From: Alphaproteobacteria bacterium
Lineage (GTDB): Bacteria; Pseudomonadota; Alphaproteobacteria; CAAHEQ01; UBA3637
DNA: 64,000 bases
Assembly: GCA_015062385.1 (NCBI GenBank)
Contig: SUUT01000002.1
Span: 465 to 64,464, forward strand
Direction: 5' to 3'
Both the position numbers and the translations under genes were made by a program. This document shows, one piece after another, positions 13,595-52,523 of the stretch (positions are counted from its first letter, which is position 1; each line of letters opens with the position of its first letter). Below the pieces are notes generated by a model, which worked only from the letters and a program-made list of their open reading frames with translations, was not told the DNA's origin and made no database searches.

Positions 13595-13750
13595 AAAAAA
13601 AGGGACGTATAAATGCAACACTTTTTTACACATTTTTGCATTTTTTTTGATTTTAAATAAATTATTCAACTAAAACAATAATCTTTCATTTTTTTTTAAA
13701 TCTGCTTCTTCCGATTCGAATAGGAAAAAAAAGGTCCCTTTTTTTATAAT
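13595..13750 (+). promoter_or_regulatory. Conserved IR-bounded 5' module, copy A (candidate invertible promoter element), plus adjacent TATAAT
   Basis: Perfect 12-bp inverted repeat: aaaaaaagggac (13595-13606) and gtcccttttttt (13734-13745). TATAAT lies at 13745-13750. The module is homologous to 33845-33989 and 52371-52518. Confidence 0.6.
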
Positions 13751-18400: not shown

Positions 18401-21400
18401 TTTTATTTTGATTTTGTAATAAATTTGATTGTATCGGGCATAAATGATATTTCCGGCACATAAGCAGGGTAAAATAGTATCAGTTGGGATAGTCCCGTTT
18501 AATTGTGCCGTTAAATTGTCAAATTCTATTATCTGATCAAACCGGGGATAATCGGATTTTTGTGTTTTATATCGTTCGGGGCTAATCTGATATTTTTGAT
18601 ATAATTTATTCAGCATTTCAGATATTAGGCGGGTATCCGGATTATTTGCATCAAAATTATCGGTAATAAGTGTATTTAAATTTTCCACTTGGAAAAGAAT
18701 GGCTGTACCTGTTGCTTTTTTAAATTTAGAAAATGTCACATTTTTTTCATCTAACGAAAAAACATAATGATATTGATTGTCTAATGCATGTACTTTTCCA
18801 TCACTGCATAAAGTAGGGGGTAATATAATTTCATTTTCATCTTTTTGTGCAATTTTTTGCTTTAAAATCAAACTTTTTTGCAAAGTTAAAAAATCAGGAA
18901 AAGCAAATTCATCTTCAAAAAACGGTGTTGTTTCCTGCACGATATTTGTATCGTTTTTTGCTGTGTTTTTTATTGGGTTTAACGAACCGAAGATATTTTC
19001 GGTTTCATGTGTGCCTGCCTGTATTCCTGTTTCTTCGGATAATTGAACAATGTATTGTTGGATAGACGTTTGTTCTTGCTGATTGCTTACGAATGAATTA
19101 TTTGTTGCCGTATTGTCATACAAAACATTCAGAGGACGTTTATTTAGACCTAAATTATTTAATTTATAGCTTTTTATTGAGCGGAATAAATCGTTTATGA
19201 TTTTGTTTAATTCTGATTTTGTCATTCGCCGAATAATTCCGTTTTCCCAAGCTTCAAATACAGGGGATTCTTTATAGCGAAGTTTATAGAAAACATTATT
19301 GTATCGAGCCAAAATGGTGTTGTTTTCACATAAAACAGGCAAAATATCGCTTTGGGTATCTTGATTATTGAGTTCCAGTTGTTTTTCGGCTAATAAGAGA
19401 GCTTGTTTTAAAGATGGTTGTAAATGTTTGCTTTCCGGAGAAATAAAGTGTTGCGACATATAAGCTGTTGCAAATCGTGCCAATACAGTGTGTCCTGTTT
19501 CGATGTCGTTTTTAAAGATATCTAATACTGTTTTTTTTATAATAAACGGTGACATAATTCTATATGCTCTTGTTTTGATATCTTTTTCCAAAAATGAAGG
19601 GCGTTTTAAGTCTAAAGAAATATAGTACAGTTTTCGACCGTCTTTCCAATGTAAAAAATTATCCGGTGTAATAATCGGTTCATAAGAATATAATTGATTT
19701 TTTTCATCAAACAAATTAGGATTATGTGTTTCAATCGCATGCGTTAATGATTGAATTTGTTGATGATAGTAGGGATTGATTTGTAAAGTGTTTTCTTCTA
19801 AAAATGAATTTAAATTAAGAGATGAACCATAATTTATCGTTATTTTCGATTGTTGTTCAGTTAAAATTTCTTGTCGATTTTGAGCGGGAAAGCGTGTTTC
19901 AAATTCATATTCAAGGGAATGCTTGTTATTAAAATCAAGCAATTCAATAATTGGTGTATATTGAATTGATTCCGGAATTGTAAACACTGGTGTTTGTTGT
20001 TTGTTAATTTGTTGGAAATACTTGCTCTTTAACCCGTTTGCTTTTGTTTCTTGTAAAACCGGTTGATGATAAGTTCCTAATAATTCCTGATTGATTTTTT
20101 GAATTTCATCGGCATTCATCGGACGGATTTGACCGTTTTGTAATGCGGTAAATGTGAGGGTGGGGGATAATGTTATTTTGTATAAAACATTTCCTTTTTT
20201 TGCAATAATAATATTACCGGCACAAATGGTTGCCGAAATATCTGATAATTTTTCAGATGTTTGATTCAAATAATTAAATACTAAAACTTGTTTTGCCGTA
20301 GGCCAAGAACGCTTGTTGTTTCTGGCTCGAACTGATTGTGTCGTAAGTGATTTATACGCTTTTTGAAATTGCCGGATAATACTTTTTTTGTTTGATACAT
20401 TTGGAACAATGGTATTTAAAACTGTTTCAAAATCTGCAACAGGTATTTTTTTATTTGTACCATCTGCTACTTCTACTCGGTAATAAGGCATATTTAAGTC
20501 AAGGGAAATAATATATTTTTTTCCGTTTGCCGATGTATATAAGCAGTCATTTTGAGCAATATATGTTGTATTTATCGGTTGATAAATCTTTGTTGCGAGA
20601 TGGTGTTTTAAAGCTGTCTGTTCAATTTTTTCCTGATAACGGTTATCCGGTCGCAATTTGATGCTTTCTTGCCAAAAAGCGAGTGCTTGTCGAATTTCAT
20701 CTTCCTGTGTTTGTGGTGCAGAATATTGAATCGTACTTTCTGCTATTGTTTGGTGGGTTAAAGACGGAATTGTTTCTTCTTTTGAATGCGTAACCATTGA
20801 GTCTGTTAAAGCTGATTTAATAATTTGTTCAGATGAAGGTGTGGTTGCTTTATTGGTTTCAGAAGAGACTGTTTGTAATGGTACGGTTTTTAAAGCTGCG
20901 TGCAAATCGTTTGCAAAAGATAATGTTTGTTGGTTTGTTTGTTCTTGTTGCTCAAAAAATTTCTGTTGGGGGGATACGGTCTTTCCGTATCGTTCCAAAA
21001 GGGCATTTGCACCTGCTTTCATTAAATAAACGGCATTATATCGTTCGCTTAAATACCGACTGATAAATCGGACTTCATTTAATGTCATTTGACGGATTTT
21101 TCCATCTTGGTAAACACCGTATGACGGGGCTCCGTCTAATGTGATTTTATAAAAGGCATTTCCGTATTTTGCCATAATAATTTGATTAGCACAAATAATC
21201 GGATTGATATTTTGCAAAACTGTTTTTTCGGCAAGTAAACTTTGGTATTTTGCCGTTTCGATTACTTGTTGAACGGAAGGAAGTTGTTTTGCCTCTCGTT
21301 TTCTTTTATGCTTAATTTTGGAATAATATAATTTCTCAAAAAATTGTATGTATTTTTGGCACAGATGTGAATCCGGTATTACTTTTGTCAGAATTTGTTG

Positions 21401-23887
21401 AACTTCCACCCATTTAAGTGTTTGTTCGGTTCTGTTTTCCGTTTTCTTAATAAAAAACGGATGATCTTCATCTAATGAAAAAATATACGTTGTGTTGTTT
21501 TCTTTGTAGTAAAGACGATTCCTGCGGTCAATAATCGGATTTCTTATTTTAACAGAACCGGCATTTTCCGGGTATTTTTGTGCGTATTCGGTTTTTAGTT
21601 GATTAAGTTCATCTTCAGCTTTAAAGGAGGGTAAAATAAAATTCGGACCGAAAAAGAAATCTGCCGTTTCAAGTTCTGTTGTCATTGGTACTGTTGAATC
21701 GGGTGTTTCAAGTAAATTTGTTACTTTTATATATGGTCCTCTTGTGGATTTCGGTTGCTGTTTGATTCGAATGGTTGGATTGATTTCTTCAAAAGAAATA
21801 ATTTTTTGAGCCAAAGAGTATTGTGAAATATCTGTTTGTTCGGGCAGGGCAGTTTCATCTGTGTGTTCGGCAGAGATTTGTTGATTTGATGCAAAAAATT
21901 TGTTCTTTAATGCTTCGGCATTCACTTCTGCCAATTGTGCATAATTATATTGTCTGCGTAAATCTTTTAAAAAGATTTTAAACTCATTAACCGTCATTGG
22001 AGCACGTTTTCCGTTTTTGTATGTTTCAAATCGGAATGGTTGTTTTGTTGATACTTTATAATAAACATCATCATATCGGGCCAAAAGGATATTTCCGGCA
22101 CAAATAACCGGTAAAATGTCGGTTATCGGATATTTTTTGAATAAATTGATATAATAATGACGTTCCAAAACCTGTTTAACAGACGGATATGTACTTTTTG
22201 AAACTTTTGTCGGCAGTGTGGATGTATGAACCCTTTGTAAAATGGCTAAAACCTGTTCTTGTGTTTCCGATGATTCCGATTGGATAAGCGGTAAAATTAC
22301 TTCTTTGATTTCAGCAAAAGAAAGTGTTCTTTGTTTGCCTGTTATATTATCCCGAATAAAAGAGGTACTTTGTCGGGGATTTAATGAAATGATAATTTGA
22401 TAATTATTTTTTTGAAAGCTAAGCAGTTGATTGCTGAATATGTTTACAGAATGATCAACAAAGAGTTTTGAGTTAACATCCTTGATGTTTTTAATGCCAT
22501 TTTTGAGAGCATTTTTATATCTGTTGATTTCTGAAAAGGTATAAAATTCAGGAAGTTGACCTTTTGCATTATAAAAATCCAATACGTCCGATGTGATGGC
22601 AGAGAGGTAATTTTGTTGTGGTAATTGGTCGGTTTGTTCATCTTTGTAAAGTGACATGAATTCTGAAATGGATGGTAAAACCGAACGATTATCTTCAATC
22701 GGTTGTTTTGTTTCTTGGCTGTCTGTTGTTTGATTCGTACTAACAAGTGGTGTGTGAATAACGGCAGGTTGAATTAAATCTTTTTGCTTGTTTTCATCTG
22801 ATTTTGTCTCGGATTTTGTCACCGAAGTTATGTTATTCGAACGCATGTTTATTTCTTGTTGCGTGTTTTCTTCTGTTACTTCAAGACCATCAGCTTTTTT
22901 AAATTGAATAAAAGGTACATAATTTGATGATTTTTTGCGAGGTCGTCTGACCGGATTTGAAATCAAATCTGTTGTTTCTTGGCTTTGCCATTTTCGGTAC
23001 TCATTGCTTTTTTCTTTTGTATAAGAAATTTCATCTGTTTTTGCATCTTCCGATAAAATGATAGGTTCTGTTTCAATTAAAACAACATCAGCCGATATGG
23101 GTTTGATCGTTTCTGATATTATTGTTTGAGTCTCTTCAATAGAGGCAGATACTTGCGGTTGTTGAGTTGTTTGGGGTGGTGTGTCTATATTTTCTTTTCC
23201 CTGTTGATCGGTTGATTTATTCTTTTTCTTTTTGGGGCCGATTAAATCAAGTGTTCCGACTTCTCGCCATTTTTTTAATTGATCCATCATTTCTTGTGAA
23301 GAACGATTATGTGTAAAATTATTGTGTTGCGTAAACGATGCGGGACGTGGAGCTTGTGTTTTTTCTTGTCCTTGTGCCGATGCCGGTAATTGTGTCGATT
23401 CTAACATTGGAGAATGCCGTAAAATCGGTTTTGTTTTTTTTGAATCAGGTTGTGTTTGGGATTCTTTATTTGTTTTTAAGGCATTTTTATCAGCCCTGAT
23501 TTCTTTTTTTACAACGCTTTGAAAATTAGGACTTTCACAAATAATTTGGCAGGCTTTTTCATAAATAAATGGGGCTTGATTGTTGTCGATTGCTGGTTTG
23601 TTTTTGTTGAATTCTCTAAAAAATTGCGGAAAGTAAGAGAGTTTATCTTCAATATCTTCATTCATACTACAATAATTGTTCATAATACTGAAAATATCTT
23701 GTTCCGTCATCGGTTCTATTTTTGTTGGGGTCAAAACAAAAAAGGCTGGATGAGATGTGCTGAAAATTATCCGAAAGAGGCGATTGTTTTGTTTTGCAAA
23801 CAAAAAAGTTCTTTTGCCTTTTTTATAAACAATCGGATCAAAAGCTTCTAAGTTCTCAATTTGTTGAATAGCTGACATTTCATTCAT
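15494..23887 (-). CDS. Giant repeat protein (2797 aa) built from an unrecognised ~55-aa domain
   Basis: There is one uninterrupted ORF of 8.4 kb. At least a dozen diverged copies of two alternating module types are present, for example ICAGNIIIAKKGNVLYKITLSPTLTFTALQNGQIRPMNADEIQKI and NGKKYIISLDLNMPYYRVEVADGTNKKIPVADFETVL. Q/T/S/P-rich linkers separate them, and there is no N-terminal signal peptide. Confidence 0.8.
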   Translation of the reverse strand: MNEMSAIQQIENLEAFDPIVYKKGKRTFLFAKQNNRLFRIIFSTSHPAFFVLTPTKIEPMTEQDIFSIMNNYCSMNEDIEDKLSYFPQFFREFNKNKPAIDNNQAPFIYEKACQIICESPNFQSVVKKEIRADKNALKTNKESQTQPDSKKTKPILRHSPMLESTQLPASAQGQEKTQAPRPASFTQHNNFTHNRSSQEMMDQLKKWREVGTLDLIGPKKKKNKSTDQQGKENIDTPPQTTQQPQVSASIEETQTIISETIKPISADVVLIETEPIILSEDAKTDEISYTKEKSNEYRKWQSQETTDLISNPVRRPRKKSSNYVPFIQFKKADGLEVTEENTQQEINMRSNNITSVTKSETKSDENKQKDLIQPAVIHTPLVSTNQTTDSQETKQPIEDNRSVLPSISEFMSLYKDEQTDQLPQQNYLSAITSDVLDFYNAKGQLPEFYTFSEINRYKNALKNGIKNIKDVNSKLFVDHSVNIFSNQLLSFQKNNYQIIISLNPRQSTSFIRDNITGKQRTLSFAEIKEVILPLIQSESSETQEQVLAILQRVHTSTLPTKVSKSTYPSVKQVLERHYYINLFKKYPITDILPVICAGNILLARYDDVYYKVSTKQPFRFETYKNGKRAPMTVNEFKIFLKDLRRQYNYAQLAEVNAEALKNKFFASNQQISAEHTDETALPEQTDISQYSLAQKIISFEEINPTIRIKQQPKSTRGPYIKVTNLLETPDSTVPMTTELETADFFFGPNFILPSFKAEDELNQLKTEYAQKYPENAGSVKIRNPIIDRRNRLYYKENNTTYIFSLDEDHPFFIKKTENRTEQTLKWVEVQQILTKVIPDSHLCQKYIQFFEKLYYSKIKHKRKREAKQLPSVQQVIETAKYQSLLAEKTVLQNINPIICANQIIMAKYGNAFYKITLDGAPSYGVYQDGKIRQMTLNEVRFISRYLSERYNAVYLMKAGANALLERYGKTVSPQQKFFEQQEQTNQQTLSFANDLHAALKTVPLQTVSSETNKATTPSSEQIIKSALTDSMVTHSKEETIPSLTHQTIAESTIQYSAPQTQEDEIRQALAFWQESIKLRPDNRYQEKIEQTALKHHLATKIYQPINTTYIAQNDCLYTSANGKKYIISLDLNMPYYRVEVADGTNKKIPVADFETVLNTIVPNVSNKKSIIRQFQKAYKSLTTQSVRARNNKRSWPTAKQVLVFNYLNQTSEKLSDISATICAGNIIIAKKGNVLYKITLSPTLTFTALQNGQIRPMNADEIQKINQELLGTYHQPVLQETKANGLKSKYFQQINKQQTPVFTIPESIQYTPIIELLDFNNKHSLEYEFETRFPAQNRQEILTEQQSKITINYGSSLNLNSFLEENTLQINPYYHQQIQSLTHAIETHNPNLFDEKNQLYSYEPIITPDNFLHWKDGRKLYYISLDLKRPSFLEKDIKTRAYRIMSPFIIKKTVLDIFKNDIETGHTVLARFATAYMSQHFISPESKHLQPSLKQALLLAEKQLELNNQDTQSDILPVLCENNTILARYNNVFYKLRYKESPVFEAWENGIIRRMTKSELNKIINDLFRSIKSYKLNNLGLNKRPLNVLYDNTATNNSFVSNQQEQTSIQQYIVQLSEETGIQAGTHETENIFGSLNPIKNTAKNDTNIVQETTPFFEDEFAFPDFLTLQKSLILKQKIAQKDENEIILPPTLCSDGKVHALDNQYHYVFSLDEKNVTFSKFKKATGTAILFQVENLNTLITDNFDANNPDTRLISEMLNKLYQKYQISPERYKTQKSDYPRFDQIIEFDNLTAQLNGTIPTDTILPCLCAGNIIYARYNQIYYKIKIKEPITFEALENNQIRSITADEFNLILNGIYERKIQHKISMRHLKKAFKEQSLFAEQFNRTAENIILPTPYTVPNRETRSRQILSELQKNDFNPYEYQPKMFENDDIEELKKALFPTHISHSAVAEFYQYNLNSFNFDAQIRIETLKRAIQNNNPDLKDEENHAFDMPAVWANDDRIHYKKGIYHYIISLRSGDVFFSVRNILNKQQRHIPYEDVKTILTEALKPYPELSQKILRILPNLYKGFFAKKNNRKNPIYTFPRFEQIEEEQKLSAQLQHIEPEEDIITHICSGNLLCAKYNNNYYRITISETPTFDVLENGVIRDMTAEEFHRILQDVAKNQIYRYLKKINISTLKNAFYRTHTYIGKARPQKSKLFKPSPYYESKSVKLLNEFIHKNVPPVYSELPLFSQILTGKNNTVDIPAIHCGDNCIYARKNGIYYKIDLSSTITFEKLYNNTIESMSRTELNDILSDLEQSYDEYYLMQLTTLNLPLIFDTTTQHTSELIQITEKTTDLQRKEDLPVKNPIISNDELTTPVKVALDSSEEQSVPMQESIVHKEDIPINQPDAVSEKPIIQQEETIVQTEKTVQQPIPTTPIQTTASKRQPVVRIASWGRKHNRILPIIQQNNEEDDIDSIEILNDILSPIKFETPRLLYTGTISDTIRPEICSEIRGVFLTDNFYIESEQKPHFNYLYKTYLRHQQIKMGKPNYFQGEDIISFDIPPVLCADNVLYEKRGKFVYQISLDEKRPKFVVQDLLLKTKTILPPKYILNMLNEWLKNEDQATELGQKLIKIYTDFVNSDNLYPQAASSYPSIQDVYHYYAQQMMYMNKYCDKTKIPAQENFSIPATLCQDNQIIAKSGRTWYKITITDDEVLFEKKVKGADSFIIRENEFYQMLNDLGQQKEIKTNPNYLKFLKHLRLIYKNNVLPVFDYYKTDIITKKMYEDYKKRNSGSISDFYLRLKQQQHNQDNQNE

Positions 23888-25520: not shown

Positions 25521-27680
25521 TCAACTGTCTTCTAAGAAACTCCGTAATTTACGGGAGCGAGTCGGATGCTTTAATTTTCGTAAAGCTTTTGCTTCAATTT
25601 GCCGAATGCGTTCGCGTGTAACGGCAAATTGTACACCAACTTCTTCCAATGTATGATCGGAATTCATTCCAATGCCGAAACGCATACGTAAAACACGTTC
25701 TTCACGAGGAGAAAGCGTTGATAAGACAGCGGTACAAGATTGGCGTAAATTTGTTTGAATGGCTGCTTCCAATGGTTGAATGGTGTTCTTATCTTCAATA
25801 AAATCACCCAAATGTGAATCTTCTTCATCTCCGACCGGTGTTTCCAATGAAATCGGCTCTTTTGCAATTTTAAGAACTTTTTTAATTTTTTCAACGGATA
25901 AGTTAATGCGTGGGGCTAATTCTTCCGGAGTTGGTTCATGTCCTGTTTCCAACATCATTTGGCGACCGGTTTTCAGCATTTTATTGATTGTTTCAATCAT
26001 ATGAACCGGAATTCTAATTGTGCGTGCTTGATCGGCAATCGCCCGTGTAATAGATTGACGAATCCACCAGGTTGCATACGTTGAAAATTTATATCCCCGT
26101 TGATATTCAAATTTATCAACGGCTTTCATCAAACCAATGTTGCCTTCTTGAATCAAGTCCAAAAACTGTAATCCCCGATTGGTATATTTTTTTGAAATGG
26201 AAATCACTAAACGCAAGTTAGCTTCAATCATTTCCTGTTTTGCTTTGTTTGTTTCTTGTTTTCCTTTTTTAACGGTTGTTACTAAACGGCGATATTCGCT
26301 GATAGGAATTTTAACTTCATCCGCAATATTTTGAATGGCTGATAAAATTTCTTTTATTTCATCTCCGTGGATGTCTGCAAAAGTCTTCCATGATTTAGAG
26401 GATTGTTTAGCGGCTTTTTGTAACCAATTTGGTTCGAATTCGTTGTTTTGATAGAAGTTTAAGAATGTATCCCTGTCAATTTTGCAGGATGTAGCCAAGC
26501 GTAATAACCGACCTTCCAAAACGATTAAACGTTGATTAACTTCATTAATTTTTTCAATTAATTCTTCAATGCGTGCCGGATTTAAGTGAATGCTTTTTAA
26601 TTTTTTGGCTAATTGAGTTTTAATTGTCTGATGTTTTTTTTCTAATGTTTTAGGTGTGATTTTGTGGGCTGAAACATATTGCATCCGTTCTGTTTGAACT
26701 TGTTCCATCTGTTGATACAGTGTAGTTAAATCTTTAAATGTTTCAATCACTTGAGGTAATAATGTTTCCTCCATTTGTCCGATGGATAAGGTGTTTTCTT
26801 CGTAATCATCATCTTCATCATCGTATTCTTCTTCTTCCGCTTTCCCCGTTTTGGGTTTGGAAACGCCCAAAGCTTCCATATCATCTTCAATATCTTTTAA
26901 TTCATCCGAATCATCAAAATCCTCATCGGGCAAATTTGAAGTATCTTCATCATATGAATCATCAAAATCCTCATCGGATAATTTTTTTGTTTTCGATGCC
27001 GGTTTGATATCTGTTGCTTGACGGGATAAAATTTTATTTGCTTTTTCTAACTCAGCCAATTCAATCGTAGCACGTTTTTGAATTTGTTCGGCTTTTTCTA
27101 AATCTGCTTTGTCCGGATTTGAGTCAAAAGATGCTTCTAAATCGATGATTTCACGCAAATACATTGTGCCATCTAACAATTTTTGATGCCATTCGGTAAT
27201 GGATTTCATAGTTAAAGCACTTTCGGATAATCCGCTCATCATCACATTTGTGCCGGCACTGATTCGTTTTGCAATAGCAATTTCGCCTTCACGGGATAGA
27301 AGTTCAACCATGCCCATTTCTCGCAAGTACAAACGAACCGGATCACTTGCCCGACTGTTTAAATCTACATCCGCCAGAGCTTCTTCACTATCTTCCGAAA
27401 CAATTAATCCGTGTTGTCCAGACATGCTTTCCGTTAAATCGGTAATGTCTTCCGTTCCGTCAATAACGTTGATTCCCATATCGGTAAAAGAAGACATAAT
27501 CAATTCAAACGTTTCTTCGTTTTGAGATTCTGCCGGCATACATTTTTTTAATTCTATCATTGAAACAAAGCCACGTTCCTTGCTTTTTTCAATTAATTTT
27601 TTCATGGACATTTTTGATTCTGCCGCAGAAGACCCCGAACGATTGTTAGGTAAATCATTTTGGAAAGAATAAGAACTCAT
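25521..27680 (-). CDS. rpoD: RNA polymerase sigma factor RpoD (sigma70) with a long acidic insertion
   Basis: Regions 1.1 to 4.2 are recognisable ([52 protein letters not shown]; [26 protein letters not shown]). An acidic D/E-rich non-conserved region is present. Confidence 0.95.
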
Positions 27681-30951: not shown

Positions 30952-32043
<1,092 letters not shown>

Positions 32044-32752: not shown

Positions 32753-33394
32753 ATGGATAAAACCATACAATTATTGCCGGACGGAACATTGACGGTAACG
32801 GAGTCAATACCGGATGGTTATAGAACAACACGTTATTTTGATTCCCGTCGTCAAATGCTTTTGACCGTTGTTGATAAAACTTCGGATAAAACAATTATTA
32901 CAAAATATGAACCGAACGGGCATTTTATCCAATCTGTAACGGTTGAACAAAAAAATAAAGTATCTGTTTATCAAAAGGATGGGAAAACACTCGTAAAAGA
33001 AAGAGAAGTTTTGCCGGATGGTAGTGAGCATGAAAATCTGTATCAGTCGGATGGAAAAACATTAAAACGGGTAACGCATTATCATATGGGGGGCAGTGTT
33101 TATACAACGGTTTATCAATCAGACGGGAAAACATTGGCACAGGTTATTGAACAAGATGATGTGGGTTTATCTAAAACAGTTGTGTATGATGCAGATGGAA
33201 AACAGATTGTAAAAAAAATTGAGGATTTAAGTGATGGTGCCTTTCGGATAACTGTTTATAAACCCCATACGGATAAAATTGCTTATGTCCAAACAGGGCC
33301 GTTAAAAGGGGAGTCTCATCCAAACACTTATCAACGAGATGAGTATGATGAAAATGGAAAAACAGTTCATACGGAAAAAATTGTTATACCATAA
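32753..33394 (+). CDS. Repeat protein with iterated YQ(S/K)DGKTL beta-hairpin-like motifs
   Basis: At least five copies of the motif (VYQKDGKTL, LYQSDGKTL, VYQSDGKTL, VYDADGKQI, and others). The family is not identified with confidence. Confidence 0.5.
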   Translation: MDKTIQLLPDGTLTVTESIPDGYRTTRYFDSRRQMLLTVVDKTSDKTIITKYEPNGHFIQSVTVEQKNKVSVYQKDGKTLVKEREVLPDGSEHENLYQSDGKTLKRVTHYHMGGSVYTTVYQSDGKTLAQVIEQDDVGLSKTVVYDADGKQIVKKIEDLSDGAFRITVYKPHTDKIAYVQTGPLKGESHPNTYQRDEYDENGKTVHTEKIVIP

Positions 33395-33844
33395 ATGTAT
33401 GTGATTTAATGAATCCGATAGCAGTATGATATTTTTTTTATAAAAACGGATGATATTTAAATTTTTTCGTCTGTTTTTTTGTTTTGTTGTGTTTTTATTG
33501 ATTTTTTTTAATAAAATTGGTAATATAAGTTATTCAATTAGAAGCATTTCATCAAAAAGCCCTTCAAACAGGTTGTTTTAGAGAAGGATTGGGTACAATT
33601 GTTCAACTGGAAAAATTGATTGAAGCACTTCAACGGGAACAGCAACGCCAACCGATTCTTATTATTTCGGCACAAGATAAAAACCAACAAACAGTTTCTG
33701 AAAATTCCAATAAAAATCGTATTCATATAAAAGATTGATTCATTTATCAGATATTTATTTCAGAACCGAAGACTATTTGAAGTTCTCCGGTTTTGTTATT
33801 TATATGTTTTAAAAGAGAGGCTTGTTTGTGTAAATATCAGTAAT

Positions 33845-33997
33845 AAAAGGGACGTATAATTGCAACAATTTTTTTCACTTTTTAGAATTTTTTTTAATTT
33901 TAGATAAATTACTCAAGTAAAACAATAATCTTTTATTTTCTCAAAAATCGGATTTTCCCGATTCGAAGCGGGAAAAAAAGGTCCCTTTTATTACACT
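33845..33997 (+). promoter_or_regulatory. Conserved IR-bounded 5' module, copy B
   Basis: The core IR is aaaagggac (33845-33853) and gtccctttt (33981-33989). It extends to 14 bp (gtaataaaagggac, 33840-33853 / gtcccttttattac, 33981-33994). The -10-like TACACT lies at 33992-33997. Confidence 0.55.
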
Positions 33998-34037: not shown

Positions 34038-36806
34038 ATGAAAATCAAATTCAATGAACTTGGTCGGAGTATGCTGGAAACGTTGTGCGTATTAGCTGTT
34101 ATCGGGGTATTAAGTGTTTCTGGTATTAGTGGATATCAATATGCAATGACTAAATATCAAACGAATGATATTATTAATTCTGTTAATATGCGTTCTTCGG
34201 ATATTTGGCATCGATATCAGCAAATTCCTCTTCCCAATGAAGAAACAAATGCTTTTCCGGAGTGGGAAACAAAAACATCAACCGGTTTTCCGATTATGAT
34301 AACATCTCATCCTGATGTAGCATTTCGCATTATTGTTGATGAAGTGCCGGAGCGGATTTGTAAAGATGTTTTAAATATGCATTTAAATGATTATGTTAAA
34401 GGGTTAAAGTTTGTTCAGGTTAATGATGTTAAATATATTAACAGTAATAACATTTGTTTATCCGATAGATTAAACAAAATTGTGTTTACTTCTTTTTTAA
34501 ATGTTGATGGTGGTTATAATCCAAACACAAATGGTATGAATAATGCTGAACCGTGTGTAGAAGATGCTGATTGTCATTCAAAATGTGCTGAAAAAATATG
34601 TAATTCCGAAACAATGATTTGTGATGATCAGTGTCCGGAATGGAATAAACCGGTACGCTTGGAAGAAACATGCGAATGTGTAGAGTGTGTTAAGAATAGT
34701 GATTGTAAATTTAAAGGAGATGGATATATTTGCAATGAGTTGGAATATAAATGCAGTAAACTGGAAAAACAATGCAAATCGAATCAATTCCGTACTCAAA
34801 ACGGAGCTTGTATTGATTGTGATAATGGCAGTAATTTTATTGTTTTGAAAGATGGAGAACCTTATCCGTTTACAAGTGATACGGTTGATGGTTATACAAT
34901 GTGTCAACAATGTGCTAATTCGGGAACTGAACGGCAATATGGAGCATTGATTGATGATGAAACAAAGGCGTATTGCTCGTTTATGTGTACTGCCGGATAT
35001 TCATATCAATCATTAAAAGACGGATGTGTATCTTGTGCCGATGAAACACCAAAATTCATTGCAAAAGACGATGTTTCAAAAAAACAATGTACATCTTGTC
35101 CTAACCATGCTTGGTATAGTGAGTATTGGTTTGATTATTATAATAAAGCAGTTCTTTGTCAAAAAAAGGTTGTTTGTGGAGATGATGAATTTGTGACAAC
35201 TGTGCGTGCTTCACATTATACCTGTGCAAAATGCAATTCTTCACGGAGTGCAAATGTTGGTGTTGGACATTATACAGCCGGTTATTCTGATAGTAAATTT
35301 TATCAATATCGTATTGATAAATGTAATAGTTGTCCGGAAAGGGATAGTGACGGAAATTATTCGGCTCGTTGGTTTGTTGGTAATGGAAACAGTGGTTCGT
35401 GTGCTCCTAAATGTGAACAACCTATCACAGGCAGTGAAGCTGACACAATTTGTAAAACAAATCCGTCAAGTGAAAAGTGTAAAAGAAAATGGCAAAATGC
35501 ATCAGGAACTTGTTTTGATTGCGATGCGGAAACAACATCCAATAATATAAAATATGGGACATCAGGAGCACAAGCAACCGATGCGGAATTAAAAAGACTT
35601 TGTTTGGCATGCGGACGAGAAGTGCAGGGCAATTATTGTATTTTACCCAAAACGAAAGATATTTGCGGAGTCGGCAAATTTTTAGGAAAAGATGGAAACT
35701 GTTATTTATGTAATAATGAAACACATGTTGAAATCGAATCAGATGCATTGTCCGGTTGTTTGAGTAATTGTAAAAAAAGTTCTGCAACAGCAACTGATTA
35801 TGTTTTAAACGGAACAGTTGATACTCGTCGTGTTTATACAATGAATGATCTTAATTATTGTGCTTTAAAGTGTTCTGACAATCAAATAAATCAAAGTGAC
35901 GGAAAATGTGTATCTTGTGGTAATCAAAATTCATTAAATACCATTACACCGGCGGTTGTGGGTGATTGCAATCTTTGTCAGTATAGAGAAATTTATGGCA
36001 ATGTTTGTGCCGTAAAAACATGTCCAACTTCATATTACAAGAATCATTCGGGGACTTGTAAGAAATGTTCCGAGCAAAATCCCGAACAGGAAACTTGGTC
36101 GAATGAATTAATACTTGGGGATATTAATTCATGCAATACCTGTGGTAACAGAATAGCTATTAAACGATATAATACAGATACAGGATTTTGGTGTACATAT
36201 ATTAATCCGGGGCAAATTGGTCTATGCAACAGTAAAGGAAATCAAGCACTTCCGGTAACAATGAATGAAACTCTTGTTGAAGCTGCTCAACCATATATAA
36301 ATTCACAACATGACGGTGAAAAATTTAGAGATCATTATGGATATTGTCGGAATTGTACGGATAGTGCTGATTATATTGCTGATGAAGAACAATGTTTATC
36401 ATGTAAAAATAGAAGATGGAGCAACAATACATGTATGAAAGGTCTGTGTGAAGAAAAATTACAGTTTTTATCCGGTTCATCTTGCTTGTCATGCTCTAAT
36501 GTTAATAAACCAATTGATCCGAGTAAGGATAACTTATGTTCCTCTTGTGAAAATAGACGTCAATTAGAAATCGGCACACCGGATACAACTTGGTCAGGAC
36601 TTTGTGTGGAAGAGTGTACGGGGACACAATGGCAGGATATTGATGGAAATTGCTTGTTCTGTTCTGAAGGAGGGGATAGAGCAATTGGAACAGATACAGA
36701 ATCTCGTCGTTTATGTAATGATGTTTGTAAAGATTATCGTCAGGAGGAAGCAATTTATTCGGCAGATGGCAAAACGGTAATCGGATATAAATGTGTTGAA
36801 AAATAG
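34038..36806 (+). CDS. Modular type IV pilin-like protein with a very large Cys-rich C-terminal region (922 aa)
   Basis: Leader MKIKFNELG|RSMLETLCVLAVIGVLSVSG. A pilin-like module with Cys pair ICKDVL...NICLS. About 750 aa follow with many C-x2-C pairs (CTSCPNH, CNSCPER, CNTCGNR, CLSCKNR, CSSCENR). Confidence 0.75.
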   Translation: MKIKFNELGRSMLETLCVLAVIGVLSVSGISGYQYAMTKYQTNDIINSVNMRSSDIWHRYQQIPLPNEETNAFPEWETKTSTGFPIMITSHPDVAFRIIVDEVPERICKDVLNMHLNDYVKGLKFVQVNDVKYINSNNICLSDRLNKIVFTSFLNVDGGYNPNTNGMNNAEPCVEDADCHSKCAEKICNSETMICDDQCPEWNKPVRLEETCECVECVKNSDCKFKGDGYICNELEYKCSKLEKQCKSNQFRTQNGACIDCDNGSNFIVLKDGEPYPFTSDTVDGYTMCQQCANSGTERQYGALIDDETKAYCSFMCTAGYSYQSLKDGCVSCADETPKFIAKDDVSKKQCTSCPNHAWYSEYWFDYYNKAVLCQKKVVCGDDEFVTTVRASHYTCAKCNSSRSANVGVGHYTAGYSDSKFYQYRIDKCNSCPERDSDGNYSARWFVGNGNSGSCAPKCEQPITGSEADTICKTNPSSEKCKRKWQNASGTCFDCDAETTSNNIKYGTSGAQATDAELKRLCLACGREVQGNYCILPKTKDICGVGKFLGKDGNCYLCNNETHVEIESDALSGCLSNCKKSSATATDYVLNGTVDTRRVYTMNDLNYCALKCSDNQINQSDGKCVSCGNQNSLNTITPAVVGDCNLCQYREIYGNVCAVKTCPTSYYKNHSGTCKKCSEQNPEQETWSNELILGDINSCNTCGNRIAIKRYNTDTGFWCTYINPGQIGLCNSKGNQALPVTMNETLVEAAQPYINSQHDGEKFRDHYGYCRNCTDSADYIADEEQCLSCKNRRWSNNTCMKGLCEEKLQFLSGSSCLSCSNVNKPIDPSKDNLCSSCENRRQLEIGTPDTTWSGLCVEECTGTQWQDIDGNCLFCSEGGDRAIGTDTESRRLCNDVCKDYRQEEAIYSADGKTVIGYKCVEK

Positions 36807-37571: not shown

Positions 37572-38903
37572 TTATCCGTTAGAAGTTGAATTATTTGAAG
37601 ACCGCAAAAGATTAATATCTGCAATAATTTCATCATGTGTATAAATACGTGTGGAATTACCGGCTAATCCGGAAGATGAATTGTCAGAATTGCTGTTTCC
37701 GGAGTTATTATTGTTATTAGTGCTATTATTACCGTTTTCGCTTAATTCGTTAATTTTATCCTGTAATGTAGAAACTTGTTCTTTTAAAGAATTAACTTCG
37801 TTTTTGGCTTCTTTTGTTTTTTTCTTTTGTTTTTTTAATAAGAAATAAGCCCCGATTGCAGCAGCTACAGCAGCAACGGCACCGATAATCCATTGCCAAT
37901 TGCGTTCCAAAAAGCTTTTTTGTTCAGCAGCTGCTTGTGCCGAAATGACAGAGTTTTCTGTTTCTTTTTTCTTTTCAGGGTCCTCCGTTGTTGCTTCGGG
38001 CGGAGCTACTTGTGTGCCCGGTGTTGTTGTTCCGGCAACGGGTGTTTGTGGTTGTACAGTTTTATCGGGTGTCTTCGGAGATGGGGTTGTTGTTCTTGTG
38101 GTTGGTGTTTGTGGAGATGGAGTTGTTCCTACGGCTGGTGTTTGCGGTTGTACCGTTTTGTCGGGTGTCTTCGGAGATGGGGTTGTTTGTGTACCAGATG
38201 TTGCCTGTTCGCTTGAGTTGTTGTTTGTATCATTTTCGGGTGTGGAAGTTGCATCATTAATGGATTCTAATGTGTCATCGTTCCCCGGAATAGGCGAGTC
38301 TTGTCCATTTTCGGGAGTGGTAGGTTGTTGTTCGGGATTAATTTCCGGTAATGCATCCTGCGTGTTTTCCGGTTGTTGTTGATTTAATTGATTTTGGATG
38401 GTTAATAACAATTCTTTGCCCACAGTATATGGATATTTTTCTTCATTCCAGCCATCTTTGACGATTTGCAACCAACCGTTAACAGTTGAAAAATCAAAAT
38501 TATAATCTTTTGTTTCATTAGACTTTTTTTTAAGAGTATTAAGATCTTCATGAAATTTCTGATTACAATTTGTTATTACAGTATCAGCAACGCTGCGGGA
38601 TTCTTCAGTGTTTGATTCATGTAATTTTAAGCATAACTCAACCAATTTCTTACGTTCATCCAAAGTCATTTCCTGCCAGGATTTTATGAATGTTAAGTTT
38701 TCGTTATAAGCATCGTCATCATACAGTGAATACTCATCTCTGCCAGGGACAATATCAAGCACTTGCCCAATGAAACTTCCACCTTCAAAATTGTTTCTTA
38801 ATCGTGTTTGTTCTTCGGGTGTTAATGTTGCACGGAATAATCCGTAATCATTATTATTACCAAAAAATATTTTTAAATGACCGCATAATGCTCCGTAATC
38901 CAT
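37572..38903 (-). CDS. Hypothetical membrane protein with a Pro/Thr-rich repeat linker, TM helix, coiled-coil and Asn-rich tail
   Basis: The repeated segment TPSPKTPDKTVQPQTP is encoded by ~52-nt direct repeats at 38041-38092 and 38137-38188. TM helix WQWIIGAVAAVAAAIGAYFLL. The tail is rich in N and S. Confidence 0.55.
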   Translation of the reverse strand: MDYGALCGHLKIFFGNNNDYGLFRATLTPEEQTRLRNNFEGGSFIGQVLDIVPGRDEYSLYDDDAYNENLTFIKSWQEMTLDERKKLVELCLKLHESNTEESRSVADTVITNCNQKFHEDLNTLKKKSNETKDYNFDFSTVNGWLQIVKDGWNEEKYPYTVGKELLLTIQNQLNQQQPENTQDALPEINPEQQPTTPENGQDSPIPGNDDTLESINDATSTPENDTNNNSSEQATSGTQTTPSPKTPDKTVQPQTPAVGTTPSPQTPTTRTTTPSPKTPDKTVQPQTPVAGTTTPGTQVAPPEATTEDPEKKKETENSVISAQAAAEQKSFLERNWQWIIGAVAAVAAAIGAYFLLKKQKKKTKEAKNEVNSLKEQVSTLQDKINELSENGNNSTNNNNNSGNSNSDNSSSGLAGNSTRIYTHDEIIADINLLRSSNNSTSNG

Positions 38904-39038: not shown

Positions 39039-39911
39039 TTATTTTTTCTTTTTTAAACTGTTAGCACCAGAAATAATATCAATTAACTCATCGGTAATTG
39101 CTGTTTGACGGTTTTGTGCAAAAATTAAGTTCAATTCTTCAAGTGAATCATCAATATTTTTTTCTGCTTGTTGCATATTTATCATACGGGTGTAATGTTC
39201 ACAGGCCAAAGAACTGATAATTGCCTGTGAAATAAGTGTTGTCAGGTATTCATGAATAAGAGATAAAAATAATTGATGAAAATCCATACTAATATAGGGA
39301 AAAGCCCGTTCCCGCCATCGTTTTTTTGTCGTGTCAAATAAAGAAACGGGGAAGGGAATTAACTGGCTTGATTGAATAACTGCCGATGTTTCTTCTTTTT
39401 GATTATAAAACAGTACAACTCGTTCAATTTTGCGTTTGTTTTTAATTTGTTCGATTTTAAGCAACAATTGTGAAGCAATATCGGCAATTTCTTCTATGGT
39501 ATTTGATATCGGGAATGATTCAGCTGGATTTAATCCGCTAAATTGAGCCATTGCACATAATTTGCGACCGATACAAATATATGTGATTTCTTCTGTTTGA
39601 TATGTTTTAAATGTTTTTTTTGCTGTTAACAAAATATTTTTATTAAAACTGCCAACCAGTCCGTTATCCGATCCGATTAAAACAGCTAATGTTTTAGGGA
39701 TATTACTTGTTTTTCCGATGCGAGTATTTAAATAGCCGTTTACATTTAAAGCCTTAAATCCGTCATATAAAACAGATAAATAATCTGATATTCCCTGTTG
39801 TGCCGTCATATATTGATTAACACTAACCGAAGACAACATTTTCATTGTAGATACAATGTTGCGTAAATCGGATGTTGTTTCAATTTGCCGGTTTAACTGT
39901 TCAAGAGTCAT
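39039..39911 (-). CDS. atpG: N-type ATPase gamma subunit
   Basis: It is the last gene of the atpDCQRBEFAG cluster. It is gamma-like, with N- and C-terminal helices (C-terminal ITDELIDIISGANSL). Confidence 0.8.
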   Translation of the reverse strand: MTLEQLNRQIETTSDLRNIVSTMKMLSSVSVNQYMTAQQGISDYLSVLYDGFKALNVNGYLNTRIGKTSNIPKTLAVLIGSDNGLVGSFNKNILLTAKKTFKTYQTEEITYICIGRKLCAMAQFSGLNPAESFPISNTIEEIADIASQLLLKIEQIKNKRKIERVVLFYNQKEETSAVIQSSQLIPFPVSLFDTTKKRWRERAFPYISMDFHQLFLSLIHEYLTTLISQAIISSLACEHYTRMINMQQAEKNIDDSLEELNLIFAQNRQTAITDELIDIISGANSLKKKK

Positions 39912-41419
39912 TTATCCTCCGATTTTAAAACGGATAAAGCTTTTTGGAAAGTTTCAATCATTTCGGCTGTTTCATTTTCGGTTGGTTTGTATTTTTTTTC
40001 AACTATTTTTTGTGCCAAAACACGATATTTTGCCTGAAATGTCCGAATGATGATTTCTTGTGCATCATTTATTTTATCTATTGGAATATCATCCAATAAA
40101 CCGGCATTCGTAGCTGTAAAAACAGCAATTTGATGAATTGCCGGCATCGGATGAAATAAACCTTGTAGCAAAACGGCACGAATAGCTTCGCCTCGTTTAA
40201 TTCGGCGGGAACTTTCCGCATCCAGTTGTGTGCTGAAACGGGCGAAAGATTCTAATTCTTCAAATTGAGCGTAAAACAGTTTTAACGGACCAACCAAAGA
40301 CCGATACGCTGGTAATTGAGCATCTCCGCCGACACGGGAAACAGAACGTCCCGTATCAATAGCCGGCAACATTCCTTTGTGAAAGGATTCGGCAGATAAA
40401 TAAATTTGTCCGTCTGTAATGGAAATAATGTTTGTTGGAATATAAGCCGATATATTGCCGGCTTCCGTAGATACAATCGGTAATGCCGTTAATGAACCGC
40501 CTCCGAATTGTTCTCTTAAATGAGTAGAACGTTCTAATAATCGTGCATGAATATAAAAAATATCCCCCGGAAACGCCTCTCGTCCCGGTGGTGTTCTTAA
40601 TAGTAACGATAATTGCCGATATGCACGAGCATGAGCCGTTAAGTCATCATAGATAATCAGAACGTCTTTTCCCTGTTCCATAAAATATTCCCCAATGGAG
40701 GTTGCAGCATAAGGGGCAACATATTGTAATCCGGCAGGAGAATCTCCACCGGCAACAATAATAACTGTTTTATGCATAACACCGGCACTCGTTAAATCAT
40801 TTATCACACGAGCAGTCGCAGTCGCTCTTTGTCCGATTGCACAATAAATACAAATAACATCAGTTTCTTTTTGATTAATAATTGTATCAACTGCAATAGC
40901 AGTTTTACCAGTTTGGCGATCACCTAAAATCAATTCTCGTTGTCCGCGTCCGATGGGAATAAATGAATCGATGGCTTTTATGCCCGTTTGTAAGGGTGTA
41001 TTAACAGGGGCTCGATGCATAATGGGGGTTGCGGGTCGTTCAATCGGATAAGAAGCTCTTGTAAGCGGAAAATCCAGTCCATCAAGCGGTTCTCCCAATG
41101 GATTGATGACACGACCGAGGAGTGCATCTCCCACAGGAACGCTTAATACCTGTTCTGTTCGATAAGCTTTATCGCCCGCCATTAATTCTTCCGGATTAGA
41201 TAAAAATACAACTCCGACTGAATTTTCATTTAATTTTTGAACCATGCCTTTAATATTGTTTTTGAAGGTTAAGACCTCATTCATTTGAGCAAACGGTAAC
41301 CCGTTAATTTCAGCAGTTCCTGCTGACAGAGATTGAATGATGCCGATTTCATCTACTTGTATATCAGAGGCGGATTTGTTTTTTACAGCTGATTTGAGGG
41401 TCTTTTTTTGTTCTGTCAT
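39908..41419 (-). CDS. atpA: N-type ATPase alpha subunit
   Basis: Walker A GDRQTGKT and other alpha-subunit motifs (ELILGDRQTGKTAIAVDTIINQ, YDDLTAHA). Confidence 0.95.
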   Translation of the reverse strand: MTEQKKTLKSAVKNKSASDIQVDEIGIIQSLSAGTAEINGLPFAQMNEVLTFKNNIKGMVQKLNENSVGVVFLSNPEELMAGDKAYRTEQVLSVPVGDALLGRVINPLGEPLDGLDFPLTRASYPIERPATPIMHRAPVNTPLQTGIKAIDSFIPIGRGQRELILGDRQTGKTAIAVDTIINQKETDVICIYCAIGQRATATARVINDLTSAGVMHKTVIIVAGGDSPAGLQYVAPYAATSIGEYFMEQGKDVLIIYDDLTAHARAYRQLSLLLRTPPGREAFPGDIFYIHARLLERSTHLREQFGGGSLTALPIVSTEAGNISAYIPTNIISITDGQIYLSAESFHKGMLPAIDTGRSVSRVGGDAQLPAYRSLVGPLKLFYAQFEELESFARFSTQLDAESSRRIKRGEAIRAVLLQGLFHPMPAIHQIAVFTATNAGLLDDIPIDKINDAQEIIIRTFQAKYRVLAQKIVEKKYKPTENETAEMIETFQKALSVLKSEDK

Positions 41420-42198
41420 TCGACCGTTTCTCCGTTTATTTTGTGTTTAATCTTTAAATTAAATTCTTCTTTCATCTTATTGAAATATGAGAAAATATTC
41501 CAGTTTGCAACAAAGGAGCCGGATTGAATCCGAAATCCAAAAGCCAATTCTTTGTTTAGGCTGAATTTAAATGTGTAGTGCTTCTCGTTTTTTAAGAATA
41601 ATTTTAAAATTTCTTGTAGTTTTTGTTTTTGTACGTCAGTTAATTTGATGGCACTTTCTATTTGAATTATGCCGAAGTTTTCTGCATTATGAGCAAATTG
41701 CTTTTTTTCATCGGCAGACAGATGTTTTAATTCTTTTTGAAAAAGAAGAAGAGTTTTTTCTGAAGATGTATCCACACCGAAATCTCGTGCAATTTGTTGC
41801 AACATAAAAAGAACGCTTTGCGTGCCGATTTCGGATAATTGGCTTTCAAACGTTTCTTTTTTTAAAATCAATTCTTGTTTTATCCGTTCTTCGCTTTCTT
41901 TTTTAAATTGGTGTAATTCGGCAGTTTTTTCGGCTTTTAAAGTTTTGACTTCATTTAACACGTTTTGAAGTTGCCGGTTTCGTTCATTTTCAAAATCCAA
42001 TTCTTTTTGACGGAGTTTTTCAGAAGCCTCCTGCCATTTTTTATATTCGGCATTTGCATCGGTAATTTTTTTTAAAATAGCCGATTGTCGTTTATCTACT
42101 GCCTGAATAATCGGTTTATATAAAAATCGTTTTAACAACCAAACCAATACAATCAGATTGATAATTTGTGCTACAAATGTAATCTTATCAATATCCAT
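41416..42198 (-). CDS. atpF: N-type ATPase b subunit (long form)
   Basis: N-terminal TM helix, a long charged helix, and an extra C-terminal domain. There is no separate delta gene in the operon. Confidence 0.75.
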   Translation of the reverse strand: MDIDKITFVAQIINLIVLVWLLKRFLYKPIIQAVDKRQSAILKKITDANAEYKKWQEASEKLRQKELDFENERNRQLQNVLNEVKTLKAEKTAELHQFKKESEERIKQELILKKETFESQLSEIGTQSVLFMLQQIARDFGVDTSSEKTLLLFQKELKHLSADEKKQFAHNAENFGIIQIESAIKLTDVQKQKLQEILKLFLKNEKHYTFKFSLNKELAFGFRIQSGSFVANWNIFSYFNKMKEEFNLKIKHKINGETVE

Positions 42199-52290: not shown

Positions 52291-52370
52291 GACGGTTGGG
52301 GTAAAAAGAATATAGTAATAAATATAATGAACATGATAACACGAATTGTATAAAAGTATCTATCCGCAAT

Positions 52371-52523
52371 AAAAGGGACGTATAAATGCAACACTTTTTT
52401 TCACTTTTTGAGATTTTTTTTGATTTTAATTAACTTATTAAATTAAAACAATAATCTTTCATTTCTGTAAAAATCAGATTTTTCTATTTTGAATAGGAAA
52501 AAAAAGGTCCCTTTTTTTATAAT
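52371..52523 (+). promoter_or_regulatory. Conserved IR-bounded 5' module, copy C, plus adjacent TATAAT
   Basis: IR aaaagggac (52371-52379) and gtccctttt (52507-52515). TATAAT lies at 52518-52523. The ends are nearly identical to copy A. Confidence 0.55.

Follow-up and report, generated by a model that had tools for sequence, protein, structure and literature searches.

Modular pilin-like proteins behind candidate invertible promoters in an uncultured gut alphaproteobacterium

Introduction

Three genes in a 64,000-nt stretch of an uncultured alphaproteobacterial genome (GenBank assembly GCA_015062385.1, contig SUUT01000002.1, positions 465 to 64,464) encode proteins of 387, 922, and 648 amino acids (aa), and each begins with what looks like the signal of a type IV prepilin followed by a long cysteine-rich tail. 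This stretch is termed the window herein and lies on contig C9, where C-numbers denote contigs of the same genome. Are proteins of this size pilins at all, and if so, which pilus would carry them, how many such genes does the genome hold, and how are they controlled? We addressed these questions computationally, with P0002, the 922-aa gene, as the main subject. We consider it likely that the three genes are members of a modular type IVb pilin family of about 100 genes, whose products would be prepilins displayed via one R64/Tcp-like pilus and switched by promoter cassettes.

Results

Three window genes with a non-canonical prepilin signal

A first-pass annotation, made from the sequence alone, had described three paralogs with a G-RSM(L/V)E leader, and the open reading frame (ORF) listing and translation agree with it on lengths and positions. 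The three genes, and the parts of P0002 as delineated here, are as follows.

13785-14948 (+): P0001, ORF for a 387-aa modular pilin-like paralog, matching the N-terminal profile described below at E = 1.4e-40
34038-36806 (+): P0002, 922-aa modular pilin-like gene, subject of this study (ORF listing, translation)
34038-34064 (+): P0002 leader MKIKFNELG, residues 1-9, with Gly(-1) at its end; predicted prepilin peptidase cut after G9
34065-34502 (+): P0002 predicted pilin module, residues 10-155; alpha-1 helix to residue 59, then beta-sheet; Cys108/Cys140 pair
34503-34583 (+): P0002 linker, residues 156-182, of low confidence (predicted local distance difference test, pLDDT, <50 at 156-172 and 180-182)
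34584-36803 (+): P0002 Cys-rich repeat region, residues 183-922, pLDDT mostly 80-90
52560-54506 (+): P0003, ORF for a 648-aa modular pilin-like paralog, with an 83% identical paralog on contig C7

A six-frame motif scan of the window recovered exactly three N-termini in which ...NE-x-G-RSM(L/V)E runs into a hydrophobic stretch, namely those of P0001, P0002, and P0003. All three therefore carry the signal and helix as first described, with leaders of 9-10 residues ending in ...NE-x-G, then RSM(L/V)E and a hydrophobic run of about 20 residues. Across 34 aligned, non-redundant N-termini of the family, G9, R10, S11, M12, E14, and C108 were invariant and C140 nearly so, which bears out the Cys pair that had been placed in a pilin-like module of ~150 aa (~145 aa here). 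The consensus after E14 is LGVLAVIGVLSVGGI.

Gly(-1) was invariant in the 34 representatives and in all ~97 ORFs that carry the leader in the whole genome. Leaders across the family had 5-10 residues, with a few of up to 18. All class III-like signals in the genome read G↓RS(M/I/L)xE, the arrow marking the predicted cut, with one exception in which the otherwise constant Arg at +1 is replaced by His (GHSMIE). The genome scan turned up no prepilin of the canonical G↓(F/M)-T-L-x-E type, and the position at which type IV pilins have a hydrophobic residue (+1) is occupied by Arg. Even a short pilin of the family scored 16.2 bits with the standard prepilin signature model, below its cut-off of 21.2. 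In a DNA-level comparison of paralogs, third codon positions of the leader stretch varied freely; the conservation thus acts on the peptide, and gene conversion of the 5' ends was ruled out as its cause.

The N-terminal module resembles type IVb pilins

A profile of the 34 N-termini, searched against 177,635 PDB sequences, gave 14 matches at E <= 10, all of them type IV pilins. The best were TcpA (8uhf, E = 1.5e-4) and CofA (9iuf, E = 0.0046), and the alignment to both extends beyond the helix, via the globular part, to the first D-region Cys. Glu14 aligns with Glu5 of mature TcpA and CofA, which sets the Gly as -1 and the Arg as +1, and from this signal we infer cleavage at G↓R.

The AlphaFold2 (AF2) model of P0002 residues 1-150 had a pLDDT of 88.1 and a predicted template modelling score (pTM) of 0.76, with a helix at 6-59, strands at 85-91, 95-103, and 146-149, and a second helix at 105-113. 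When it was compared with the PDB by Foldseek, the 12 best matches were without exception type IVb pilins, several at probability 1.0; TcpA (8uhf_D, TMq 0.67) and CofA (TMq 0.60) both reached that probability, and Salmonella Typhi PilS was also among the best. The full-length model, built on an alignment of 38 homologs (pLDDT 80.1, pTM 0.62), shows a lollipop-shaped head, a low-confidence linker, and confident Cys-rich hairpin/short-helix repeats to residue 922, and its confident Foldseek matches were limited to type IVb pilins (TcpA, CofA, and Typhi PilS on top, probability 1.0). The conserved Cys pair suggests a Cys108-Cys140 disulfide. Thus, the module is homologous to type IV pilins and pilin-like in its modelled fold, the point on which the first-pass annotation had staked its pilin-like reading, and profile and models together support its assignment as a type IVb pilin.

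One prepilin peptidase and one pilus cluster

The pilin-like reading also presupposed a prepilin peptidase and assembly machinery somewhere in the genome, and both were found. Peptidase_A24 gave a single match, to a 236-aa protein (E = 5.6e-14) in which a GAGDVK motif and an upstream LLPD motif, i.e., both catalytic Asp motifs, were recognized by eye. Its gene (C3:29360-30070) lies directly downstream of two short pilins, both with the leader MKKNESG↓RSMVE. The assembly genes are grouped as follows.

Contig C8: pilus cluster encoding a TcpQ-domain lipoprotein, a secretin, PAP_PilO, a coiled-coil protein, a T2SSE ATPase, and a T2SSF platform protein

The ATPase has 704 aa, PAP_PilO (PF06864) was matched at E = 3.8e-28, and the secretin has, by eye, a lipoprotein-like (lipobox-like) N-terminus. 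Judged by its domains, this is a complete R64/Tcp-like type IVb assembly cluster, with the genes that make up the thin pilus of R64 and the type IVb pili of the Tcp/Cof type. PAP_PilO was present in single copy in 37 of 40 other genomes sampled from the same taxonomic family and in none of 14 control genomes.

The genome yielded one secretin match and one A24 peptidase match, and we therefore rejected the idea that these proteins work with another pilus or with a type II secretion system. Two further T2SSE ATPases were not in a pilus-like context, being isolated or beside a 2190-aa ORF. The window itself had no Peptidase_A24, T2SSE, or secretin matches, all of which fell on other contigs, in line with the earlier statement that no assembly genes are visible there; other pilus components were not scanned for separately in the window. 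Two membrane-anchored DsbA-like proteins with a CGWC motif (C18:15489-16370 and C38:10557-11432) could oxidise the many cysteines of the family, up to ~200 per protein.

About 100 members in one small genome

The genome comprises 1.81 Mb on 45 contigs and is 99% complete. A whole-genome leader scan identified 97 ORFs with the same leader, and ~103 with a relaxed motif, with a footprint of ~162 kb or 8.9% of the genome. A family of very large proteins had been correctly recognized from the window, but its size was understated at three: there are ~100 genes, and the largest encodes 3845 aa. Large members numbered 73 (274-3845 aa, median 675 aa, 8-10% Cys), and 13 members were cut by contig ends, from which we conclude that the shared 5' end breaks the assembly. 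P0002 has eight full-length paralogs in the genome, at just 31-36% identity.

The 11 short complete members (121-181 aa) have two Cys each and occur mostly as tandem pairs on contigs C3 and C11. Nine of these contigs' short pilins (C3:28028-29085 and C11:9561-27148; 144-181 aa) are near-identical up to about residue 55 and diverge over the C-terminal half; their genes, mostly in tandem pairs, mostly lack a promoter cassette of the kind described below. We regard them as candidate major pilins, of which the genome has several variants.

Candidate invertible promoter cassettes

Upstream alignment and an inverted-repeat search revealed the same arrangement, AAAGGGAC-N127-GTCCCTTT, ahead of all three window genes, 46-52 bp before the start codon; when the three upstream regions were aligned, column identity averaged 82%.

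13595-13745: P0001 cassette, OFF; inverted repeats 13595-13606 and 13734-13745, 127 bp between
33840-33994: P0002 candidate invertible promoter cassette, OFF; inverted repeats 33840-33853 and 33981-33994, 127 bp between
52368-52518: P0003 cassette, OFF; inverted repeats 52368-52379 and 52507-52518, 127 bp between

The arms of the P0002 cassette (14 nt) are 100% complementary. As assembled it offers no -35, and when flipped it brings TTGCAA to 17 nt upstream of a fixed TACACT (33992-33997); flipping the P0001 cassette would likewise give TTGCAT-17-TATAAT. Genome-wide, 66 cassettes were found, 59 of which stand 45-120 bp upstream of family genes. As assembled, 58 of these 59 lack a TTGnnn-N16-18-TAnnnT across the gene-proximal repeat, and every one of the 58 gains TTGCA(T/A)-17-TA(C/T)A(C/A)T when flipped in silico. 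The remaining one (C26_97369, 1061 aa) is flipped, with the promoter present; in C33_54851, a near-identical paralog, the flanks are the same and the cassette has the opposite orientation. Both orientations were also present among loci of related genomes.

These features point to a split sigma-70-type promoter, with the -35 predicted inside the cassette and the -10 outside, and we infer from the same comparisons that the cassettes actively invert. With relaxed matching, 4 of the 73 large genes were ON and ~68 OFF, and most short pilin genes had no cassette; all three window genes are OFF in this assembly and the four ON paralogs lie elsewhere. The large modular family that the first-pass annotation recognized thus stands, but the probable gating of most of its large members by an invertible promoter was missing from that account.

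Two ~195-aa tyrosine recombinases consisting of the catalytic domain only (C12:71102-71698 and C12:131553-132134), about the size of FimB/FimE, lie within a few kb of family genes and are candidate invertases. Seven cassette copies adjoin no recognized family gene (C3:34642, C31:17778, C32:17287, C35:16032, C36:29277, C43:12550, and C44:31915), some of them at contig ends, and the switch may also control genes outside the family. In another species (JAZUBA010000026.1, L015:1-210), an intact TTGCAA-17-TACAAT precedes a 70% identical P0002 ortholog. The TTGCAA there sits inside a longer inverted repeat (CCCTTTATTTGCAAC / GTTGCAAATAAAGGG), such that the switch logic may differ in that species.

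Cysteine-rich outer modules

The Cys-rich tails reported for the three window proteins were recovered in full, with 22 Cys in P0001, 77 in P0002, and 45 in P0003. Beyond residue 160, P0002 is 9.7% Cys and contains 19 CxxC motifs, arranged in a repeat unit of ~50-60 residues: CxxC, ~16 residues, CxxC-x-(N/G)R, then C-x4-C. Its Cys columns were invariant across the alignment of 38 homologs. No confident match to residues 183-922 was found in Pfam, in PDB sequences, or among PDB folds (Foldseek). The PDB profile matches to this region from the full-length alignment, to the NrfB cytochrome (E = 0.011) and a CXXC zinc finger, were dismissed as chance CxxC coincidences. The Foldseek match to megalin, at probability 0.09, carries no confidence. 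A multihaem reading was also rejected, because His follows none of the 19 CxxC motifs, which excludes haem binding.

Pfam and NCBIfam searches of P0001-P0003 yielded nothing significant, the sub-threshold matches being DUF7107 and, in P0003, an FGE-sulfatase fragment (residues 371-393, below significance in Pfam). The latter falls within a segment of P0003 that we tentatively consider C-type-lectin-like.

53649-53990 (+): P0003 possible C-type-lectin-like module, residues 364-477; tentative, from sub-significance alignments

This segment gave a weak full-domain alignment to snake venom convulxin beta (E = 0.42) that includes a W-x-DAE-x-FC motif, and it is common to just 2-3 paralogs in the genome. 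Pfam was also run on eight other family members and found Teneurin-type epidermal growth factor (EGF) repeats in a 518-aa member (E = 9e-27), Ephrin_rec_like repeats that passed the threshold in two members (982 aa and 1061 aa), and a right-handed beta-helix/NosD in the 3845-aa member. By sequence, then, the outer modules appear diverse, ranging from a novel CxxC repeat to EGF-like, ephrin-receptor-like, beta-helix, and possibly lectin-like types. Their 8-10% Cys and the EGF-like, Ephrin_rec_like, and Beta_helix modules speak for an extracytoplasmic character.

Distribution and conservation

Full-length homologs of P0002 numbered 38, at 27-98% identity, all unnamed apart from a few annotated as 'hypothetical protein', which come from metagenome-assembled genomes (MAGs) of Alphaproteobacteria. 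Among 1.84 billion cluster representatives, the N-terminal profile matched 6409 at E <= 1e-3 and 5269 at E <= 1e-10. Species-representative genomes contained the peptide pattern in at least 575 stretches; every one of the 79 loci listed for it came from uncultured Alphaproteobacteria, one of them labelled Pseudomonadota, and where the title names a source it is the gut of an animal (buffalo, deer, sheep, goat, or rabbit) or of Hadza or Nepali people. The family was present in 24 of 24 sampled genomes of the same taxonomic family, with 8-100 matches each, and in one of 16 genomes from other families of the class.

A MAG from buffalo rectum carries a 96% identical P0002 ortholog with the same downstream neighbour. 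Paralogs within the genome share 31-36% identity, compared with 45-98% for the best cross-genome matches (taken as orthologs), in which the Cys columns are conserved. The paralogs therefore appear to be old, each one being kept from species to species, and this agrees better with separate functions than with hypervariation alone.

Genomic context of the window genes

The pilin-like genes of the window are interspersed among core genes and form no island. This housekeeping context includes an RpoD-type sigma-70 factor and pyruvate phosphate dikinase by Pfam, and a CcrM-like DPPY adenine methyltransferase and ATP synthase subunit genes as read by eye (25521-27680, -; 54803-57466, -; 30955-32043, +; 39039-42198, -). 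Other neighbours are listed here.

15494-23887 (-): 2797-aa ORF close to P0001, no Pfam match at E <= 0.001
32753-33394 (+): 213-aa protein of YQSDGKTL-type repeats (DUF2963, E = 5.5e-7), ~640 bp upstream of P0002 and ~450 bp upstream of its cassette
37572-38903 (-): 443-aa protein that has Pro/Thr-rich repeats (TPSPKTPDKTVQPQTP), a single transmembrane helix, and a tail rich in Asn and Ser; its sole match is a weak DUF948

Discussion

Proposed mechanism and its alternatives

How would these proteins reach the cell surface? We propose that the single A24 prepilin peptidase would cut after the invariant Gly, leaving Arg(+1) and Glu(+5), and that the alpha-1 helix and the TcpA/CofA-like globular module would then admit the protein to the one R64/Tcp-like type IVb pilus. 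Entry would most likely be as a tip-located or low-abundance minor pilin, like TcpB, CofB, and R64 PilV, into a filament whose body would be made of the same-leader short pilins of 145-180 aa. The disulfide-rich C-terminal module, of a type that differs by paralog, would be kept at a distance from the cell, offering a binding surface that could serve adhesion. The 127-bp cassette would set each gene, ON when the TTGCA(T/A) -35 is placed 17 nt upstream of the fixed -10 and OFF in the other orientation, and flipping would leave each cell showing a small, changing subset of the paralogs.

Several points weigh against this proposal. Arg at +1 is, to our knowledge, undescribed for any studied prepilin, and N_methyl (PF07963) and TIGR02532 gave no match at E <= 1 to P0001-P0003; since these models miss the large proteins, the signal was rightly called non-canonical at first pass. 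No N-terminal methyltransferase-type domain was detected in the 236-aa peptidase, such that processing may differ from that by PilD, and no DsbB was found in the genome. The ~85 large paralogs are spread over most contigs, with none inside the contig C8 pilus cluster, and known type IVb systems carry one minor pilin, compared with ~85 here. Modules of 100-400 kDa would need passage through the secretin, for which the only known precedent is in PilY1-sized tip proteins of ~115-125 kDa. Finally, the organism is known from metagenome bins only.

Some of these same points would suit an account in which the prepilin signal is an export and anchoring device only, and the proteins, once cleaved, end up as pseudopilus-like stubs or released cargo that form a surface coat or are secreted. 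Modules of up to 3845 aa are awkward at a pilus tip, one machine would have to serve ~85 large paralogs, the leader is short and unlike those of type IVb pilins, and type IVb machines also secrete proteins such as TcpF and CofJ. However, the invariant Glu(+5) and a full pilin module with its disulfide are what filament packing needs, beyond the needs of cleavage; the fold matches polymerising pilins; and the known type IVb-secreted substrates use Sec rather than prepilin signals. We therefore regard a coat or secretion role as unlikely. Less likely still is that these are ordinary Sec/YidC-inserted proteins, anchored N-terminally in the inner membrane or periplasm, whose pilin likeness is a relic with no functional pilus link. 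The missing Pfam N_methyl match, the atypical Arg at +1, and the lack of linkage to pilus genes would agree with it, but G(-1), E(+5), and the pilin fold are retained throughout ~100 paralogs and in more than 5000 cluster representatives, and the short pilins beside the peptidase have the identical signal. Moreover, the family and PAP_PilO each occur in nearly all sampled genomes of the same taxonomic family, and phase-variable promoters together with eukaryote-like adhesion modules point to surface exposure.

A different question concerns purpose rather than the mechanism of display: the family could be mainly an antigenic or phage-evasion decoy repertoire instead of a set of adhesins for distinct ligands. 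Each gene having its own ON/OFF switch, with few ON, would fit such a use, as would the strong variation in copy number per genome (8-100 matches), and the Cys-rich CxxC make-up recalls the variant-specific surface proteins (VSPs) of Giardia, as an analogy only. On the other side, the paralogs appear to persist across species with their Cys frameworks kept (45-98% identity, against 31-36% between paralogs), and qualitatively different modules (EGF-like, ephrin-receptor-like, beta-helix, possibly lectin-like) fit distinct binding better. We judge a mainly decoy function to be somewhat unlikely, though less so than either of the two accounts of localization above. Display through the R64/Tcp-like pilus, with distinct binding modules, remains the reading that we compare with known systems below.

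Comparison with known systems

Modular type IV pilins resemble this family in having an N-terminal pilin module, a linker, and a grafted functional module presented by the filament. Streptococcus sanguinis provides two examples: PilB bears a von Willebrand factor type A (vWA) module and PilC a lectin module. A survey of these proteins, based on selection by IPR012902, listed >1200 modular pilins in 264 architectures, the most extreme of 860 aa (Raynaud et al. 2021, PMC8179133). The present family differs in being missed by the Pfam/TIGRFAM models equivalent to IPR012902; in size, with a median large member of 675 aa and a largest of 3845 aa; in number, at ~100 per genome; in being apparently type IVb and not monoderm type IVa-like; and in its Arg at +1 and per-gene promoter switch.

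Machinery of the type IVb kind, with a TcpQ domain and a secretin, is shared with the toxin-coregulated pilus (TCP) of Vibrio cholerae and CFA/III of enterotoxigenic Escherichia coli, and it is their major pilins, TcpA and CofA, that the N-terminal module matches best in sequence and fold. The minor pilins TcpB and CofB of these systems are large, have C-terminal domains, are located at the tip, and start assembly. There, however, one operon-encoded minor pilin has a long leader (15-30 aa), whereas here ~85 scattered large paralogs have leaders of 5-10 residues and unrelated Cys-rich modules, and neither the PDB profile search nor Foldseek gave a match to TcpB or CofB themselves. Because it differs in operon location, copy number, and leader length, the family is not a strict member of the TcpB/CofB/PilV class, and by analogy it plausibly works like that class.

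The best match in gene set is the thin pilus of R64/ColIb-P9 (PilL, N, O, P, Q, R, S, U, V), to which the PilL-like TcpQ-domain lipoprotein, the PilN-like secretin, PAP_PilO, the ATPase, and the platform protein all correspond. In the R64 shufflon, site-specific DNA inversion chooses among alternative adhesin C-termini of PilV for one pilus. There, inversion reshuffles C-terminal segments of a single pilV, whereas here whole genes would be switched by invertible promoters; the repertoire is also about ten times larger, and it is chromosomal and conserved across a bacterial family, unlike that of a plasmid conjugation pilus.

Per-gene or invertible-promoter switching is familiar from the mpl/P35 lipoproteins of Mycoplasma penetrans, fimS of E. 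coli, and the capsule promoters of Bacteroides. In mpl/P35-type systems, an inverted-repeat segment before each gene completes or breaks the promoter and gives combinatorial ON/OFF expression of surface proteins, as proposed here; the differences are that the cargo would be pilin-like proteins of a Gram-negative type IVb pilus and that the promoter is split across the cassette edge. Giardia VSPs and ciliate surface antigens are large Cys-rich CxxC families of gut or aquatic microbes, few of which are expressed at once. The likeness to them is an analogy of working, not a claim of membership, and both anchoring (pilin versus transmembrane or glycosylphosphatidylinositol) and switching differ. 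Within the literature that could be searched, no paper named the motif or this combination of features. Modular pilins themselves are known; what would be new is a phase-variable library of ~100 genes for modular minor pilins of the type IVb kind, in which the signal is a new variant and the eukaryote-like modules are partly novel.

Implications for the family and its host lineage

Type IV pili are usually described as having one major pilin and a handful of minor ones. Here, a 1.8-Mb genome spends ~9% of its DNA on ~100 pilin-headed proteins for an apparently single pilus machine, and the Cys-rich modules of these proteins include a repeat unmatched in Pfam or the PDB. The invariant G↓RSMxE indicates that current signature models miss whole clades of pilins, more than 5000 public cluster representatives being unnamed. 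A wider picture, which may hold although we stop short of calling it probable, is that throughout this reduced-genome family of gut Alphaproteobacteria a single conserved type IVb pilus carries giant tip pilins drawn from a phase-variable, interchangeable set of 10 to ~100, with eukaryote-like modules (EGF-like, ephrin-receptor-like, beta-helix, and possibly C-type-lectin-like). Such a system of combinatorial adhesion or host mimicry would follow a logic like that of the variant surface protein families in eukaryotic parasites, and, because its Arg(+1) signal, to be cut by a peptidase in which no methyltransferase-type domain was detected, is invisible to current pilin models, modular pilins would be systematically under-counted.

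If the proteins are displayed, they would constitute the largest known repertoire of alternative pilus adhesins and would take the concept of modular pilins beyond one grafted module, to a library that can be switched. Display would also offer a handle on how an uncultured, widespread gut lineage of ruminants, rabbits, primates, and non-industrial humans attaches to hosts, food particles, or other microbes.

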